Shown one piece after another: positions 43,638-49,501 of a stretch of 64,000 nt of DNA (the stretch's first letter is position 1; every line of letters begins with the position of its first letter). The position numbers and the translations under genes were made by a program. The notes below the pieces were generated by a model, which saw nothing but the letters and a program-made list of their open reading frames with translations, did no database searches and was not told the DNA's origin. Origin of the DNA: a virus; IMG/VR virus record IMGVR_UViG_3300044988_000363. The stretch is one strand, 5' to 3'.

Positions 43638-44051
43638 TTAGCACCACAAGGTTCCGTAAGAGTCCTCTTCATCTAGAGAGAATACAGTTTTCTTGATGCC
43701 GAAATGTTCGATGGCTTTCTGACATCCCGGACAAGGTTCCGCCCTACCACTTACCCAGTTCATGTCTCCTTTGTGCTTGCGCTTTACACGATAGACATAT
43801 AGAGTGGCATTCTTAAGATCTTCTTCGTCGACAATCTTCAATGCTTTGATAATGCAATCTACCTCTGCATGTTTAAAGATCGCATCGTTATTCTTTGCGA
43901 ATCTTTTCTGCAGAGGGTGAGATTTGTCGGAGTTTAGTCCAACTGAAATAATCTCGTTACGGATAACGAGACAAGCAGCGAGTTTCATTTTCATGTTGTT
44001 GGAAGTGGCGAGTCTACGGACAAAGTCCATATATTTCTTGTCGCGAGTCAT
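43638..44051 (-). CDS. zinc-dependent cytidine/dCMP deaminase superfamily protein
   Basis: HAE...PCPGC; start set at MTRDKKY after GAGGA. Confidence 0.85.
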   Translation of the reverse strand: MTRDKKYMDFVRRLATSNNMKMKLAACLVIRNEIISVGLNSDKSHPLQKRFAKNNDAIFKHAEVDCIIKALKIVDEEDLKNATLYVYRVKRKHKGDMNWVSGRAEPCPGCQKAIEHFGIKKTVFSLDEEDSYGTLWC

Positions 44052-44056
44052 AATAT

Positions 44057-44225
44057 AATCCTCGGGAGTTACTACCTTCTCCCAGTCACTATTTCGTTGA
44101 GACAGGTTTAGTGGATAAGACGGCATATCAGAGGACGTTCCAGGTTGCCTCTACCTATGTCTGTATAAAGCGATATGCCTACCTTATACAGTGAACGGAA
44201 AGTATCCATCTCTTTCCGTCGGATT
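44057..44225 (-). ncRNA. candidate pseudoknotted structured RNA
   Basis: AATCC/GGATT closure, five hairpins, loop GGCATATC complementary to downstream GATATGCC. Confidence 0.6.
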
Positions 44226-44226
44226 T

Positions 44227-44301
44227 TGGAGCGGGCGACCAGATTCGAACTGGCGACCAACAGTTTGGAAGACTGTGACTCTACCCCTGAGTTACACCCG
44301 C
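44227..44301 (-). tRNA. tRNA-Gly(UCC)
   Basis: cloverleaf, CCA. Confidence 0.9.
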
Positions 44302-44423
44302 ATTAACCAAATGTATATAGGTCTTGTAATACAAAACCAGCGACAATCATCAATAAAAAGAAACAAACGATCTTGATAATTGCCGAAATTTTATGTTGTT
44401 CTTCAGTCATAATACATCCTTTT

Positions 44424-44498
44424 TGGCTCGGGATCATGGACTCGAACCACGAATGTCGGAGTCAGAATCCGAAGTTTTACCAATTAAACTAATCCCGA
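44424..44498 (-). tRNA. tRNA-Gln(CUG)
   Basis: cloverleaf, CCA. Confidence 0.9.
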
Positions 44499-44499
44499 A

Positions 44500-44575
44500 T
44501 GGTGCTGGCAGCAGGAGTCGAACCCACGACCTTCTCATTACAAGTGAGTTGCTCTACCGTCTGAGCTATGCCAGC
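44500..44575 (-). tRNA. tRNA-Thr(UGU)
   Basis: cloverleaf, CCA. Confidence 0.9.
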
Positions 44576-44576
44576 A

Positions 44577-44990
44577 TTAGTAAGCAGGAACCATACAACT
44601 CTGAACCAGATCTGCTCCACCGAATAGCTGGCCAAACAAATCATAAGGATCAACATACATTGCACAGTTTCCAGAAGTTGCCACAGGAACATTAGTTGGA
44701 TATCCCGGAGGCGAATAGATGTTAGAAGCTTCTGGTGTTGGTACTGAATTATAAACAGGAACCAACGGTGCAGGTTGAACAGGAACTACTACTGGAACCA
44801 TAACTGTAGAGCTAATAGGACCAGGACCAGCAGGAACATACTCAACTGCAACAGGAACCTGAACAGTCTTTACAACTTTCTTTACTGGCTGCTGGTATGT
44901 AATCTTACAGTTATTACATACACTAATATTATCCTGCGCATAAGCAGGAACAGCCAATACAATCCCTAGAGCAACTAGAAACTTTCTCAT
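44577..44990 (-). CDS. secreted Pro/Val-rich hypothetical protein
   Basis: signal peptide ending AYA. Confidence 0.6.
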   Translation of the reverse strand: MRKFLVALGIVLAVPAYAQDNISVCNNCKITYQQPVKKVVKTVQVPVAVEYVPAGPGPISSTVMVPVVVPVQPAPLVPVYNSVPTPEASNIYSPPGYPTNVPVATSGNCAMYVDPYDLFGQLFGGADLVQSCMVPAY

Positions 44991-44992
44991 TG

Positions 44993-45277
44993 TTACCACC
45001 CGTAGTAATAACCATTCCCAGGATAATAGTAATATGGCGAATTAGCGTATGGATAACGAGGACCATAGTAATATGGATAAGGATTATATCCATAACCCTG
45101 CGAAGCAATTGCGCCGCCGATTACTCCTCCGAGAATAGCAGCACCAGCCATGGCACCATAAGCTGCGCCATAACCACCGTAACCATATCCACCGTAGTAT
45201 CCACCACGATACCAAGCATTAGCCGGAGTCGTAATAACGCTACCGAGGATAACTAAAGCAGCAACAATCTTCTTCAT
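44993..45277 (-). CDS. secreted Gly/Tyr-rich protein
   Basis: signal peptide ending ANA, glycine-zipper GAAILGGVIGGAIA. Confidence 0.65.
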   Translation of the reverse strand: MKKIVAALVILGSVITTPANAWYRGGYYGGYGYGGYGAAYGAMAGAAILGGVIGGAIASQGYGYNPYPYYYGPRYPYANSPYYYYPGNGYYYGW

Positions 45278-45342
45278 AGCTTTTCTCCATAAAGCGAACT
45301 GACCGTGGGTCCGCACGAGTCTATTTAGCGACCAACCTATAA

Positions 45343-45418
45343 TGGCTCCCGAGGAAGGGCTCGAACCTCCGACAAAGTCGTTAACAGCGACCTACTCTAC
45401 CAACTGAGTTACACGGGA
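45343..45418 (-). tRNA. tRNA-Asn(GUU)
   Basis: cloverleaf, CCA. Confidence 0.9.
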
Positions 45419-45486
45419 ATAATTCTTATATTCTTAGTATACCTTATTTAGTCAGAAAGTCAAATTCTTTTTTGACTGAGAGAGAA

Positions 45487-46224
45487 TTAACTGAAGGGAC
45501 ATTTCGATTCTCTTTTTTGATTTCTCTTATCAAGCTGGACGAATTTTCTCCACCCATAAAAACTTGTTTGAGAATGGAAAGACATTTTCTTCCACTCGTA
45601 TTCCGAAACCAAATGTTGTCTAATCTTTACCTTCTTTTCTGACAAAGGCACCATAATAGCCAAAGGAAGACCAATCGGAATGATAAATTCTGATGTGTAA
45701 TTCGGAATCATCATATTTATGTGAGTCGAAGAGTTTAACTTATAATCAACGACTCCAGGAAGAACTCTAAAATAGAAATCTTCTAAATTCCATTCAGCGC
45801 CAAGAAAAACAAACTTAACACCTGTCTTTTCTTTAAAAAACCATGGGCTAGTTAATTTCAAATGAAAATAATTTTTAAACCCTTCACCATATAATTGCTT
45901 ATCATGAATATCACAACCAGTGTCAAACGAAGCCCAAGTATCCATTCTGTTGTTAGCAATTTTAATAATTCTATCAGACCAGTTTTCTAGAACAATTCCT
46001 CGTTTATAAAGTTCAAGGAAACCAGAACATGTCTTCATATTTGCATTATTAAATGCTCTGTTGTTTACAATCCTATAGGGATTTCCCTCTGGCTTCCTAA
46101 GATTGTCCCACCATTCTGGTGTCGCTTTATAAGCATGAACAATAGGAGTTACCTCAAAAATCATACGATGCGCTGTGAAACAATCTATTGTTATCTCTGG
46201 ACTTCTTTTGAAGAATGAAAACAT
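45487..46224 (-). CDS. hypothetical protein inside tRNA array
   Basis: MKTCSG, KLTSPW, LPGVVDY, C-terminal KCPF. Confidence 0.7.
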   Translation of the reverse strand: MFSFFKRSPEITIDCFTAHRMIFEVTPIVHAYKATPEWWDNLRKPEGNPYRIVNNRAFNNANMKTCSGFLELYKRGIVLENWSDRIIKIANNRMDTWASFDTGCDIHDKQLYGEGFKNYFHLKLTSPWFFKEKTGVKFVFLGAEWNLEDFYFRVLPGVVDYKLNSSTHINMMIPNYTSEFIIPIGLPLAIMVPLSEKKVKIRQHLVSEYEWKKMSFHSQTSFYGWRKFVQLDKRNQKRESKCPFS

Positions 46225-46240
46225 AATATATTCTTTCTTT

Positions 46241-46314
46241 TGGTACTGGCACCAGGTATCGATCCTAGTCTACAAGATCCACAATCTCGTGTGCTACCTT
46301 TACACTATGCCAGC
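46241..46314 (-). tRNA. tRNA-His(GUG), no G-1, A73
   Basis: loop TTGTGGA; base -1 is T, discriminator A. Confidence 0.85.
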
Positions 46315-46317
46315 ATA

Positions 46318-46391
46318 TGGATCGGGGTCAGGGACTCGAACCCCGACATGCAGATTCAAAGTCTGCGGTTCTACCATTAAACTAACCCCGA
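46318..46391 (-). tRNA. tRNA-Gln(UUG)
   Basis: cloverleaf, CCA. Confidence 0.9.
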
Positions 46392-46398
46392 ACAATTT

Positions 46399-46490
46399 TG
46401 GTGCGTAGGGATGGATTCGAACCACCAATGTTACCGCAAAGGGAACGGATTTACAGTCCGTCGCAACACCACCGTCGTTGCCGCCTACGC
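46399..46490 (-). tRNA. tRNA-Tyr(GUA)
   Basis: long variable arm, CCA. Confidence 0.85.
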
Positions 46491-46495
46491 ATGTT

Positions 46496-46572
46496 TGGAG
46501 TCCCAGGAAGGATTCAAACCCTCAACCTTCGGTTCCGTAGACCGATGCTCTATTCAGTTGAGCTACTGAGAC
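46496..46572 (-). tRNA. tRNA-Arg(ACG)
   Basis: cloverleaf, CCA. Confidence 0.9.
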
Positions 46573-46573
46573 A

Positions 46574-46650
46574 TGGTGCCCTTGGTCAGATTCGAACTGA
46601 CACTTTGTTGATTTTGAGTCAACTGCCTCTGCCGATTGGGCTACAAGGGC
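46574..46650 (-). tRNA. tRNA-Leu(CAA), short variable loop
   Basis: 77 nt, 5-nt variable loop. Confidence 0.85.
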
Positions 46651-46807
46651 TTTTCTTGAACAATAATCAAAACTGGATAGCATGTTCTTTTAACAAGATA
46701 AATGCCAGGTTTCCAGTTAATAGGATTGTTGTTTTTTATTCTTACTGGTATTTCGCAATAAAAATCAACTCGTTTTGTGGATCCTATAATACCACCTACA
46801 TGTTTCA

Positions 46808-46883
46808 TGGTGCTTCCCCCTAGAATTAAACTAGATCCTCTCGTTCTTCAGACGAGCGTGCGCATCAGCTACACCAGAGAAGC
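46808..46883 (-). tRNA. tRNA-Phe(GAA), atypical T-loop
   Basis: loop CTGAAGA, T-loop TTTAATT. Confidence 0.75.
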
Positions 46884-46889
46884 ATTATA

Positions 46890-46985
46890 TGGTAGGCCAG
46901 GTAGGATTCGAACCTACTCGTTGTCTTTCATCCGGATTCATGGACAACAGCGTCTCGCCACGTCTTCCTATTCCGTCACTGACCT
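46890..46985 (-). ncRNA. tRNA-like RNA lacking a canonical anticodon arm
   Basis: intact acceptor stem, D-arm, T-arm and ACCA; anticodon arm reduced to GCG-AGA-CGC, extra GTTGTC/GACAAC arm. Confidence 0.7.
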
Positions 46986-46989
46986 ATAT

Positions 46990-47066
46990 TGGTGCCCCTG
47001 GTAAGATTCGAACTTACAACCTCCTGATTCTAAGTCAGGCATCTCTTCCAGTTGGACTACAGAGGC
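46990..47066 (-). tRNA. tRNA-Leu(UAG), short variable loop
   Basis: 77 nt, 5-nt variable loop. Confidence 0.85.
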
Positions 47067-47070
47067 ATAT

Positions 47071-47145
47071 TGGTACGGGATGACAGGGTTGAACTGCCGA
47101 CCTTCGCCGTGTAAAAGCGTTGCTCTACCACTGAGCTAATCCCGC
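47071..47145 (-). tRNA. tRNA-Val(UAC)
   Basis: loop TTTACAC, CCA. Confidence 0.85.
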
Positions 47146-47236
47146 ATATTATCTATCACCTAAATTCAAAAGGAATGCTAAGATTCCTATTGATATCCAT
47201 AACACAACGAGTAACTTTAACATACTCTGTCCTAAT

Positions 47237-47314
47237 TGGTCGGGGTAGCAGGATTCGAACCTGCGACCTACTGGTTCCAAACCAGCCACGCTAACCAGAC
47301 TGCGCTACACCCCG
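47237..47314 (-). tRNA. tRNA-Pro(UGG)
   Basis: cloverleaf, CCA. Confidence 0.9.
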
Positions 47315-47321
47315 AATATAT

Positions 47322-47397
47322 TGGATGCGAAGCGTTGGAATTGCACCAACTTCTACTGGTTTATGAGACCAGCGAGATACTATACCTCCCGCCCGCA
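47322..47397 (-). tRNA. tRNA-Met(CAU), atypical
   Basis: loop CTCATAA; T-loop TGCAATT, irregular acceptor stem. Confidence 0.65.
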
Positions 47398-47404
47398 AAA
47401 CTCT

Positions 47405-47479
47405 TGGTGCTGATAGTTGGAATCAAACCAACCTGAAACGCCTTATGAGAGCGCCTCGACATCTTGCCGACCTATCAGC
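47405..47479 (-). tRNA. tRNA-Met(CAU), atypical D-arm
   Basis: loop CTCATAA, CCA. Confidence 0.7.
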
Positions 47480-47483
47480 GAAA

Positions 47484-47557
47484 TGGCACCAGTGGAAGGA
47501 GTCGAACCCTCGCCTGCTGTTTTGGAGACAGCCGTGCTACCGTAACACTTCACTGAT
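47484..47557 (-). tRNA. tRNA-Trp(CCA)
   Basis: cloverleaf, CCA. Confidence 0.88.
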
Positions 47558-47559
47558 AA

Positions 47560-47649
47560 TGGCGGAGTGGTGGCGGAATCGAACCCCTGGCCTTTCGGCT
47601 CTACTGGTTTTCAAGACCAGACTAGTATCCCCGACTAGATACGCACTCC
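47560..47649 (-). tRNA. tRNA-Ser(UGA)
   Basis: long variable arm, G73. Confidence 0.85.
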
Positions 47650-47664
47650 ATTTTTATTTAAACT

Positions 47665-47740
47665 TGGTGGACCAGAGAGGAATCGAACCCCCGACCCTCT
47701 GAATGCAAATCAGATGCTCTCCCAACTGAGCTACTGGCCC
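47665..47740 (-). tRNA. tRNA-Ala(UGC)
   Basis: G3:U70, CCA. Confidence 0.92.
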
Positions 47741-47798
47741 GAAACGTATTCTATTTAGTAATATTACCGCATTTTAACAGACAAGTCAACAACTTTTT

Positions 47799-47889
47799 TG
47801 GCGGAGAGTGAGAGATTCGAACTCTCGGTAGACTTTCGCCCACGCTTCGTTAGCAGTGAAGTGCCTTAGACCAACTCGGCCAACTCTCC
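47799..47889 (-). tRNA. tRNA-Ser(GCU)
   Basis: long variable arm, G73. Confidence 0.9.
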
Positions 47890-47893
47890 AATT

Positions 47894-47985
47894 TGGTAGG
47901 CATGGTGGGACTCGAACCCACTGAAGAACACCCATCTGATGCTAAAGGCTTTATAAGAGCCTCCCCGCTACCCAGCGTCACGCCC
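47894..47985 (-). tRNA. tRNA with UAU anticodon (nominally Ile) and long variable arm
   Basis: AGGCT-CTTATAA-AGCCT, 24-nt variable region, ACCA. Confidence 0.7.
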
Positions 47986-48033
47986 AAACTTTGTAAACTT
48001 ATAAATACTAAGCAGCAGATGATTGAGGATACA

Positions 48034-48666
48034 ATGAAAGCATATACTTACACTATTACCCACATTTCTACTGGTAATATTTATTACGGAGTAAGAAAAT
48101 CGTCCATCGAAGATATTGGAGTGGACTACTTTTCTTCCTCTAAACTTATCAATCGCCTCATACAAGAGGATGGTATTGAAAACTTTTCATTTAAAGTTAG
48201 AAGAAAGTTCGATACATACGAAGATGCTCGTAAACACGAAACCAAGTTTCTTCAGAGAGTGAAAGCAGTATCTAATCCTAGGTTCTATAACCAAGCCATT
48301 TCTTCTCCGAGAGTGTGCAAGAAAGACTCACATTCAGAAGAAAAAAGAAAACAATCTATTTCAGAAACTATGAAACTGCTGTGGCAGTCAGAAGACTACA
48401 GAAATAGACAAAAATTCAACAAACTCTCTAAAGAAGAAAGATCTAAGAGAGGAAGAAAAGGCGGTCTTGCAACTGCTAAGACCAGAACCAAGAAACCCAA
48501 AAACAAACCTACTTACAGTGAAATCTTGATCGTCAAAGACGGTAAGACCAAAACAGTAAAAAGAAACCAAGTCCCAGCATACAGAAAGTATGGTTGGGAA
48601 AGGGCGAATGGCGACCCGTACGGGGATCGAACCCGTTATCTCTGGCGTGACAGGCCAGCGTCTTAA
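48034..48666 (+). CDS. Seg-like GIY-YIG homing endonuclease, antisense within tRNA array
   Basis: AYTYTITH...YYGVR, YFSSS, FYN; TATAAATA at 48000; start after GAGGA. Confidence 0.8.
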   Translation: MKAYTYTITHISTGNIYYGVRKSSIEDIGVDYFSSSKLINRLIQEDGIENFSFKVRRKFDTYEDARKHETKFLQRVKAVSNPRFYNQAISSPRVCKKDSHSEEKRKQSISETMKLLWQSEDYRNRQKFNKLSKEERSKRGRKGGLATAKTRTKKPKNKPTYSEILIVKDGKTKTVKRNQVPAYRKYGWERANGDPYGDRTRYLWRDRPAS

Positions 48667-48685
48667 CCAATTCGACTTACGAGCC
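48609..48685 (-). tRNA. tRNA-Asp(GUC)
   Basis: cloverleaf, G73, CCA. Confidence 0.88.
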
Positions 48686-48693
48686 ATTATAGC

Positions 48694-48831
48694 TTTCGGG
48701 CAGACGAGGACACACATTCGTCTCTTCTCTCACATTTGTTACAGCGCCGTGAATTAGCCGTATATACTTGCACCATATATCCGGTCCTATCATTTAGAAC
48801 GATAGGTATATGGCTACGTATGCACCCGAAA
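48694..48831 (-). ncRNA. candidate structured RNA between tRNA-Lys and tRNA-Asp
   Basis: TTTCGGG/CCCGAAA closure, TAGCC/GGCTA, CCTATC/GATAGG, AGACGA/TCGTCT. Confidence 0.55.
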
Positions 48832-48833
48832 CT

Positions 48834-48909
48834 TGGAGGATCCTCAGGGACTCGAACCCTGAACCTTGAGATTAAAAGTCTCTTGCTCTACCTATTGAGC
48901 TAAGGATCC
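48834..48909 (-). tRNA. tRNA-Lys(UUU)
   Basis: cloverleaf, CCA. Confidence 0.9.
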
Positions 48910-48916
48910 ATTATAT

Positions 48917-48994
48917 TGGTAGGGCGGATGGGACTCGAACCCACATTGCACAGATTGAAAGTCTGTTTTCCTAGGCCAATTAGAAGACCGCCCC
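48917..48994 (-). tRNA. tRNA-Glu(UUC)
   Basis: cloverleaf, CCA. Confidence 0.88.
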
Positions 48995-49050
48995 GTAACT
49001 TACACACTTAATATACCCTGAAAGAAAGTCAAAGTCAACTTCTTTCTGAA

Positions 49051-49126
49051 TGGTAGACCGAGAGGGGATCGAACCCACGACAAAGGGATTAAGAGTCCCC
49101 TGCTCTACCAACTGAGCTATCGGTCC
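49051..49126 (-). tRNA. tRNA-Lys(CUU)
   Basis: cloverleaf, CCA. Confidence 0.9.
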
Positions 49127-49132
49127 ATAAAC

Positions 49133-49208
49133 TGGTGCTGTAGGAGAGATTCGAACTCCCGACCTACTGATTACTAATCAGTTGCTCTACCAACTGAGCT
49201 ACTACAGC
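49133..49208 (-). tRNA. tRNA-Thr(AGU)
   Basis: ACTGA-TTAGTAA-TCAGT anticodon arm, otherwise canonical. Confidence 0.88.
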
Positions 49209-49209
49209 A

Positions 49210-49285
49210 TGGTTGTCCCTGCTGGCTCCGACCCAGCGACCCCAGTCTTATCAGGACTGTGCTCTACCAACTGAGCTAAGGGACA
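49210..49285 (-). tRNA. tRNA-Ile(GAU)
   Basis: loop CTGATAA; atypical T-loop. Confidence 0.85.
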
Positions 49286-49287
49286 TC

Positions 49288-49422
49288 AATTCTTAGAAAG
49301 ATACAGGTTTACTATGTCACTCATTCTGATGGTTGCAATCCAGAGCAGAACCTATTTGCGACACAAGGTTTGGGCTTTTTTACGGATCCTCGCCCGCACG
49401 AGCCTGTACCTATCTAAGAATT
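49288..49422 (-). ncRNA. candidate structured RNA between tRNA-Cys and tRNA-Ile
   Basis: ~20-bp closing stem AATTCTTAGA-TAGGTACAGG / CCTGTATCT-T-TCTAAGAATT with internal stems. Confidence 0.6.
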
Positions 49423-49501
49423 GGAGGGAGTGATGGGACTCGAACCCACATATTTTAGGTTTTGCAGACCTTGCCGTAACCAATTCCGGACACACACTCC
49501 C
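49422..49501 (-). tRNA. tRNA-Cys(GCA)
   Basis: loop CTGCAAA, U73, CCA. Confidence 0.85.

Follow-up and report, generated by a model that had tools for sequence, protein, structure and literature searches.

A conserved, probably pseudoknotted RNA element between tRNA-Gly and a deaminase gene in T4-like freshwater phages

What occupies the 175 nucleotides (nt; positions 44052-44226) between the last tRNA gene of a phage tRNA array, tRNA-Gly, and the deaminase gene that follows it? The question arises in a 64,000-nt stretch of the IMG/VR virus record IMGVR_UViG_3300044988_000363 (the window), whose source phage is T4-like, with a PHROG-262 DNA polymerase ~50% identical to those of cyanomyoviruses. 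A preliminary description, made from the letters of the window, had proposed an unrecognised, pseudoknotted non-coding RNA (ncRNA) processed from the tRNA transcript. We compared the interval with its homologs and found that it very probably holds an RNA structure under selection. Judged by sequence comparison, the element is a structured RNA family absent from Rfam 15, with four distinct members found, and an accessory module tied to the 3' side of tRNA-Gly in some uncultured T4-like freshwater phages.

The four distinct element sequences, all from lake-phage contigs and 70-87% identical to each other, are those of the window, L048, L054/L055 and L057. The copy in L048, a metagenome contig, came from an nhmmer search of fetched loci (E=9e-24); L054/L055 were found upstream of homologs of the gene that comes next in L048; and the copy in L057, an IMG/VR contig, was found by a two-anchor pattern. 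Matches among the homologs have nhmmer E-values of 9e-24 to 3e-30 and score 172-203 bits against a covariance model (CM), R1, that was built from a MAFFT alignment (A3); the four sequences realigned to R1 constitute alignment A5. The divergence of the element is about that of the deaminase DNA (70-78% identity), and its identity lies below that of the tRNA (76-96%). The window's version also occurs, identical, in lake-metagenome contigs dated 2016-2025, so the element is real and recurrent, yet those copies hold no comparative information.

In all four sequences 0-1 nt separate the CCA of tRNA-Gly(UCC) from the first base of the element. The first 6-8 nt after the CCA differ completely in L054, and at the other end the similarity stops sharply at the 3' arm of the last hairpin, H5, beyond which the tails cannot be aligned. 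The parts of the element in the window are listed below (H, hairpin; PK, pseudoknot).

44064-44226, minus strand: structured RNA, conserved core of ~163 nt (nhmmer, CM R1, alignments A3 and A5)
44221-44225 with 44057-44061, minus strand: closing stem AAUCC / GGAUU, its 3' side overlapping the deaminase Shine-Dalgarno (SD) sequence
44194-44220, minus strand: H1, whole hairpin
44212-44220 with 44194-44202, minus strand: H1 stem (G)ACGGAAAG / CUUUCCGU(U), 8-9 bp, 4 double-change pairs, 94% of cells paired
44203-44211, minus strand: H1 loop AGAUGGAUA, 9 nt, invariant
44161-44191, minus strand: H2, whole hairpin, with an 11-nt loop holding the PK1 5' strand
44182-44191 with 44161-44170, minus strand: H2 stem CUGUAUAAGG / CUUUAUACAG, 10 bp, 4 compensatory pairs, mainly from L054
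44172-44179, minus strand: PK1 5' strand GGCAUAUC, in the H2 loop, pairing with 44122-44129
44153-44160, minus strand: junction AYAUAGGU, nearly invariant
44148-44152 with 44130-44134 (whole 44130-44152), minus strand: H3, AGAGG / CCUCU, with a 13-nt loop containing a conserved CCUG
44122-44129, minus strand: PK1 3' strand GAUAUGCC, including an in-frame AUG at 44126 that is not a start codon
44112-44121, minus strand: invariant single strand GUCUUAUCCA
44099-44103 with 44085-44089, minus strand: H4', GUCUC / GUGAC, loop AACGAAAUA (GCCAC/GUGGC in homologs)
44109-44113 with 44087-44091, minus strand: H4 of the preliminary description, CACUA / UAGUG
44079-44083 with 44064-44068 (whole 44064-44083), minus strand: H5, GGGAG / CUCCC, loop ARGGYAGUAA
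44052-44063, minus strand: non-conserved 12-nt tail with the deaminase SD, GAGGA (44059-44063), unalignable with homologs

All the stems named in the preliminary description, together with its 8-nt complement between a hairpin loop and a downstream strand, are literally present on the minus strand where it had placed them. We tested a helix model comprising H1, H2, H3, H4', H5, PK1 and a proposed second pseudoknot, PK2, against the four sequences. In A5, standard pairs fill 96.3% of the 190 pair cells; sliding the 3' partners by 1-3 columns lowers this to 40-47%. Double changes are seen in 14 pairs, against 1-5 for the slid partners; none of 500 shuffles reached the observed pairing and double-change values. 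The double changes fall in H1 (4), H2 (4), H5 (4), PK1 (1) and H4' (1), with none in H3 or PK2. The structure-blind alignment A3 gave 94.7% paired cells and 13 double-change pairs. Covariation of the pseudoknot had been named beforehand as a check, and unconserved pairings as a refutation; H1, H2, H3, H5 and PK1 are all kept across the four sequences, and the proposal survives this check.

The helices differ in how they are kept. In H5, which is paired in 100% of cells, four of the five pairs are double-changed in L048 (UCCGG/CCGGA), while H3, also paired in 100% of cells, is nearly invariant and shows a single A-U to G-U change. PK1 is paired in 97% of cells; one U-A pair is replaced by C-G, A-U to G-U changes occur, and L054 has one U-U mismatch. 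The alignments support a fold of five hairpins (H1, H2, H3, H4' and H5) plus PK1, in which the H2 loop pairs with the strand following H3 as an H-type pseudoknot. PK2 would join UAUCCA (44112-44117) to the complementary UGGAUA of the H1 loop (44203-44208). All 12 of its columns are invariant in the four sequences, and a second loop-to-strand pairing is probably formed here, being possible and not proven.

Other proposed pairings fared less well. Hairpin 4 as originally drawn is not conserved: it is paired in 87.5% of cells, has no double change and competes with PK2. We preferred H4', which is paired in 95% of cells, has one compensatory pair and was also chosen by RNAalifold. RNAalifold further proposed a long-range helix of UGCCGUCUU with the H5 region, which we rejected because it would destroy H5 and its four compensatory pairs. 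The closing stem, described at the outset as containing the deaminase SD, overlaps it in the window (5 bp, -5.5 kcal/mol) and also has 5 bp in L057, but is not conserved, with only 3 bp in L048 and L054. The repeated hexamers that had been noticed are likewise present in the window, but in the homologs AACCUG is unrepeated and AGGUAG occurs at only one or two of its three sites.

Of the stem columns, 57% vary but remain paired; the variable share is 37% among unpaired columns, 19% in PK1 and 0% in PK2. Loops and junctions show more conservation than the stems and hardly vary at all, a sign of a specific tertiary fold or binding surface. The pattern of substitutions, as read from the alignments, is that of a functional RNA.

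Does the element belong to a known family? We compared it with the 4227 models of Rfam 15, which include tRNA, tmRNA, T-box, RtT, ROOL, GOLLD, manA, wcaG and all ribozymes, and no model matched the copies in the window, L048, L054 or L100 (the end of contig L057) at E<=10. The preliminary description was right in calling the ncRNA unrecognised, in that it has a conserved pseudoknotted structure and no Rfam 15 match. A blastn search with the L054 and L057 elements against 50,697 GenBank phage records gave no match. Neither ARAGORN nor the Rfam tRNA model detected a tRNA signal on 44052-44226, the element contains no T-loop of the GUUCGAAUC type, and it forms neither a cloverleaf nor a T-arm/acceptor minihelix.

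What follows the element differs from one homolog to the next:

Window, after H5: deaminase, ATG 12 nt downstream
L048, after H5: an uncharacterised open reading frame (ORF) of 134 aa, then a terminator and a promoter, then the deaminase
L054, after H5: an ORF of 133 aa homologous to that of L048, then the deaminase
L057, after H5: 12 nt, then a tRNA-like RNA, then the contig end

An ORF with an SD and UAUAUU-AUG begins 12 nt after H5 in the window, 27 nt after it in L048 and 31 nt after it in L054. The ORF134 family is also found directly after tRNA-Gly, with no element between them, in some relatives. The tRNA-like RNA of L057 (14394-14476) is called by neither ARAGORN nor Rfam; it has a 7-bp acceptor (CUCCACG/CGUGGAG), a T-arm (GCAGG-UUCGAAU-CCUGU, of the GUUCGAAUC type), UCCA and an aberrant middle, and it recalls the tRNA-like 3' end of T4 rnaC.

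The element was found nowhere in two near-complete relatives (96% and 98% complete), searched with a positive control, and the contigs reached through the deaminase and ORF134 homologs P0001, P0002, P0004, P0092, P0093, P0095, P0096, P0098 and P0101 show other upstream contexts and no element. Its absence from relatives and the differing downstream features indicate an accessory module tied to tRNA-Gly, not to the deaminase. Exact-pattern scans from the window's own sequence returned no homolog, and a pattern from the tRNA-Gly 3' half returned no new contigs. A looser pattern gave 32 matches in genome_contigs, about the number expected by chance; none of the subset with 107-nt spacing, nor any of five extra viral matches, fit the hidden Markov model of the element, and the bacterial matches read like protein-coding sequence. 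The joint 44084->44201 in run X6 hints at a further divergent homolog.

The setting of the element bears on how it may be made. Its neighbours on the 5' and 3' sides are:

44227-49499, minus strand: tRNA array, 24 tRNA genes (ARAGORN)
44227-44301, minus strand: tRNA-Gly(UCC), CCA encoded, the last tRNA of the array (ARAGORN; Rfam tRNA, 63 bits)
43638-44051, minus strand: gene of the cytidine/dCMP-deaminase fold, 137 aa, ATG at 44051 (Pfam PF00383, 6e-15); a neighbour, outside the RNA

The first base of the element (44226) directly adjoins the 3' end of tRNA-Gly on the same strand. Scans for promoter-like or terminator-like sites found none from a promoter-like site at 45463-45436 to the deaminase, and since no such site lies between the tRNA array and the deaminase, a natural reading is that the element would be cut from the tRNA transcript. 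In RNA runs X23 and X24, ~5% of the sampled words were present.

On balance we lean towards the element being an accessory structured ncRNA cut from the tRNA transcript, by analogy with the small stable RNAs of phage T4. It would be transcribed within the transcript of the tRNA array, and its 5' end would be produced by the 3'-end maturation of tRNA-Gly. In L057, the 3' end may arise from RNase P-type cleavage at the tRNA-like RNA 12 nt further on. The compact fold would then allow the product to accumulate as a small stable RNA in the manner of T4 rnaC and rnaD, with a factor of the host or the phage as its possible target in trans.

The T4 tRNA cluster ends in tRNA-Arg, rnaD and rnaC, separated by gaps of 1 and 6 nt. 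Both RNAs (rnaC, species 1, 139 nt; rnaD, species 2, 119 nt) resemble the element in lying in a T4-type tRNA cluster on the same strand, in being of similar size and in having no established function; rnaD starts 1 nt after tRNA-Arg, a spacing like the 0-1 nt between the tRNA-Gly CCA and the element. The differences are that rnaC ends in a tRNA-like T-arm/acceptor, which the element lacks although a tRNA-like RNA follows it in L057, and that the covarying pseudoknot is a feature of the element, unlike rnaC and rnaD.

Several points weigh against an accessory ncRNA of this kind. A search of the T4 locus (L097) with nhmmer and CM R1 detected nothing, so no homology to rnaC or rnaD was found. Two near-complete relatives do without the RNA, which is therefore dispensable. 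The minimum free energy (MFE) of folding is unremarkable and not diagnostic, with z-scores of -0.70 with flanks and -0.88 for the window core, and of -0.7 to -2.2 overall. R-scape-type covariation statistics need more than four distinct sequences, and no covariation supports PK2. A cis-acting leader would also account for the three cases out of four in which an ORF preceded by an SD begins 12-31 nt after H5. Finally, of the originally proposed processing from the tRNA transcript, the position flush with tRNA-Gly and the absence of an intervening promoter or terminator hold, but processing and stability are inferred.

A 5' leader acting in cis on the following gene is accordingly a possible, if doubtful, alternative: once the tRNA is removed, the folded element would become the 5' end of the downstream mRNA and would shield that mRNA from 5'-end-dependent decay or tune translation, possibly as a riboswitch. 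The ORFs that begin soon after H5 in the window, L048 and L054 with an SD and UAUAUU-AUG agree with this, as do the lack of a terminator between element and ORF, the aptamer-like conserved loops and junctions, and the ability of the 5' tail in the window to pair with the GGAUU overlapping the SD (-5.5 kcal/mol). Yet the members share no class of downstream gene; the genes that follow are unrelated, the next feature in L057 is a tRNA-like RNA rather than an ORF, and both ORF134 and the deaminase are expressed without the element in many relatives. Nor is there a conserved expression platform, as no terminator is present and the duplex with the SD shrinks to 3 bp in L048 and L054. The narrower suggestion of a deaminase-specific leader hiding the deaminase SD fails on the same evidence, with an unconserved closing stem and either the deaminase, ORF133/134 or a tRNA-like RNA downstream. 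We consider it very unlikely that the element cleaves itself as a ribozyme, or otherwise helps processing, so as to free the 3' end of tRNA-Gly or split tRNA from mRNA without host endonucleases. Cleavage by HDV-like and hatchet ribozymes falls at the 5' edge of the ribozyme itself, and the start of the element at the tRNA 3' end in all four cases, its compact and possibly double-pseudoknotted fold and its invariant junction nucleotides are what such a ribozyme might show; but no Rfam ribozyme model matches at E<=10, the 6-8 nt after the CCA are wholly different in L054, and tRNA-Gly matures without the element in most relatives. There is a small chance that the element is instead an active partner of tRNA biology, either a ribozyme or tRNA-binding RNA, or a decoy or sponge against a tRNA-targeting host defence or RNase. 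The UCCA at the 3' end of the adjoining tRNA-Gly has its complement in the invariant UGGA of the H1 loop, for which the internal UAUCCA could compete, and such an RNA could control the release, CCA-end access or charging of the phage tRNA. A counter-defence role would agree with its accessory distribution, present in some phages and absent in others, at a hypervariable locus.

It is highly improbable that the interval is spacer without function, left over from decayed genes or tRNAs, with hairpins due to chance. Its MFE z-scores of about -0.7 to -0.9 and its absence from most relatives, at a hypervariable junction, are what a spacer would give, but four helices show compensatory changes, the similarity has a sharp edge at divergences too great for the flanking spacer to align, and ARAGORN and Rfam find no tRNA signal. 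We give almost no credence to translation of the element, whether as a longer deaminase N-terminus from the AUG at 44126, the outcome that the preliminary description had said would count against it, or as a small peptide starting MPSYP. In the window no stop codon interrupts the frame between 44126 and the deaminase, and an AUG or GUG followed by PSYP can be read in all four sequences. However, all 90 deaminase homologs are ~137 aa long and align from residue 1-2 of the short form, so the deaminase starts at ATG 44051 and not at 44126. The AUG at 44126 has no SD before it and lies inside a covarying strand of PK1. In L048 and L057 single-nucleotide indels throw the reading out of frame beyond the sixth codon, and indels and stop codons occur in every frame of the element among the homologs; a conserved reading frame is thereby excluded.

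If the element is an accessory ncRNA released from a tRNA transcript, bacterial parallels for its origin exist. The RtT RNA of the tyrT operon is a functional RNA released from the 3' trailer of a tRNA transcript; the Rfam search gave no RtT match on the element. Another is 3'ETS-leuZ, a sponge RNA from the trailer of the Escherichia coli glyW-cysT-leuZ tRNA operon (10.1101/2021.04.25.441314). Both share with the element the proposed origin in a tRNA 3' trailer but are bacterial rather than phage RNAs, and 3'ETS-leuZ acts by linear base-pairing with small RNAs and has no elaborate fold, unlike the element. Riboswitch aptamers and self-cleaving ribozymes (ZTP, HDV-like, hatchet) are also compact pseudoknots with invariant junction or loop nucleotides and covarying stems; they differ in that no model of these families matches the element at E<=10 and that the element has no conserved expression platform or consistent downstream gene. 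GOLLD, named partly for its lake origin, and ROOL are RNAs of 500-800+ nt that form multimeric cages, whereas the element has ~163 nt and no Rfam match to either. Both are structured ncRNAs of phages and prophages, often near tRNA islands and without an established function (10.1101/2024.12.08.627333).

The element is thus a new RNA family among the small structured RNAs embedded in phage tRNA islands, where none of the known non-tRNA RNAs (T4 rnaC and rnaD, ROOL, GOLLD) has an established function. At ~163 nt it is experimentally tractable, with a covariation-supported pseudoknotted fold and almost invariant loops. Its carriers are abundant, recurrent freshwater T4-like phages, in which natural, isogenic-like variants with and without the RNA share the same lakes and offer a ready comparison for the function of such RNAs. 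The annotation of the locus is also corrected: the deaminase starts at 44051, and the element is not a deaminase riboswitch.

The comparison with relatives says more about the junction itself. In most relatives, the deaminase is 85-87% identical as a protein and syntenic (Asn-tRNA, two ORFs, Thr, Gln, mini-ORF, Gly), and only 16 nt separate the CCA of tRNA-Gly from the deaminase ATG. This 16-nt form and the form with the element co-occur in the same lake samples, the 16-nt form having the higher contig depth in three of four runs. A 99%-identical deaminase is preceded by a completely different region with a promoter and a hairpin, and other relatives have a terminator and promoter, or another gene, upstream of the deaminase. 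The junction is hypervariable (L001-L048, L025, L026), with at least six arrangements among close relatives: the 16-nt spacer, the element, ORF134, promoter plus hairpin, terminator plus promoter, and another gene. It has the look of a recombination hotspot where the tRNA array ends. One of the contigs compared, L026 from ENA, opens (positions 1-22) with letters resembling an Illumina adapter, CAGACGTGTGCTCTTCCGATCT, probably an artefact of assembly. L053 and L056, which are more distant relatives, have a different repeated RNA-like module in the matching region ahead of their ORF134 homologs, in which repeats of the type CCUGUUAAGUUUUAGG...CAGCAAAC are interleaved with tRNA-like T-arms.

Within the array, a 35-aa hydrophobic mini-ORF (MTEEQHKISAIIKIVCFF...) with its own SD lies at 44303-44410 on the minus strand, between tRNA-Gln(CUG) and tRNA-Gly. 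Relatives conserve it (L009: MDHKTSAIIKIVCFF...), L048 lacks it, and its product may be a small membrane peptide encoded within the tRNA array. The array may hold further non-tRNA RNAs. Three of its non-tRNA spacers on the minus strand (46884-46989, 47315-47483 and 49286-49421) are 77%, 100% and 76% identical in relatives, respectively, and four others (46651-46807, 47146-47236, 47986-48608 and 48686-48833) had no match among the loci compared. Two further places on the minus strand, neither of them called by ARAGORN, may be extra or atypical tRNAs: 47326-47392, a weak Rfam tRNA match (31.5 bits), and 47564-47649, a tRNA-Sec-like Rfam match (36.8 bits, below the cut-off).
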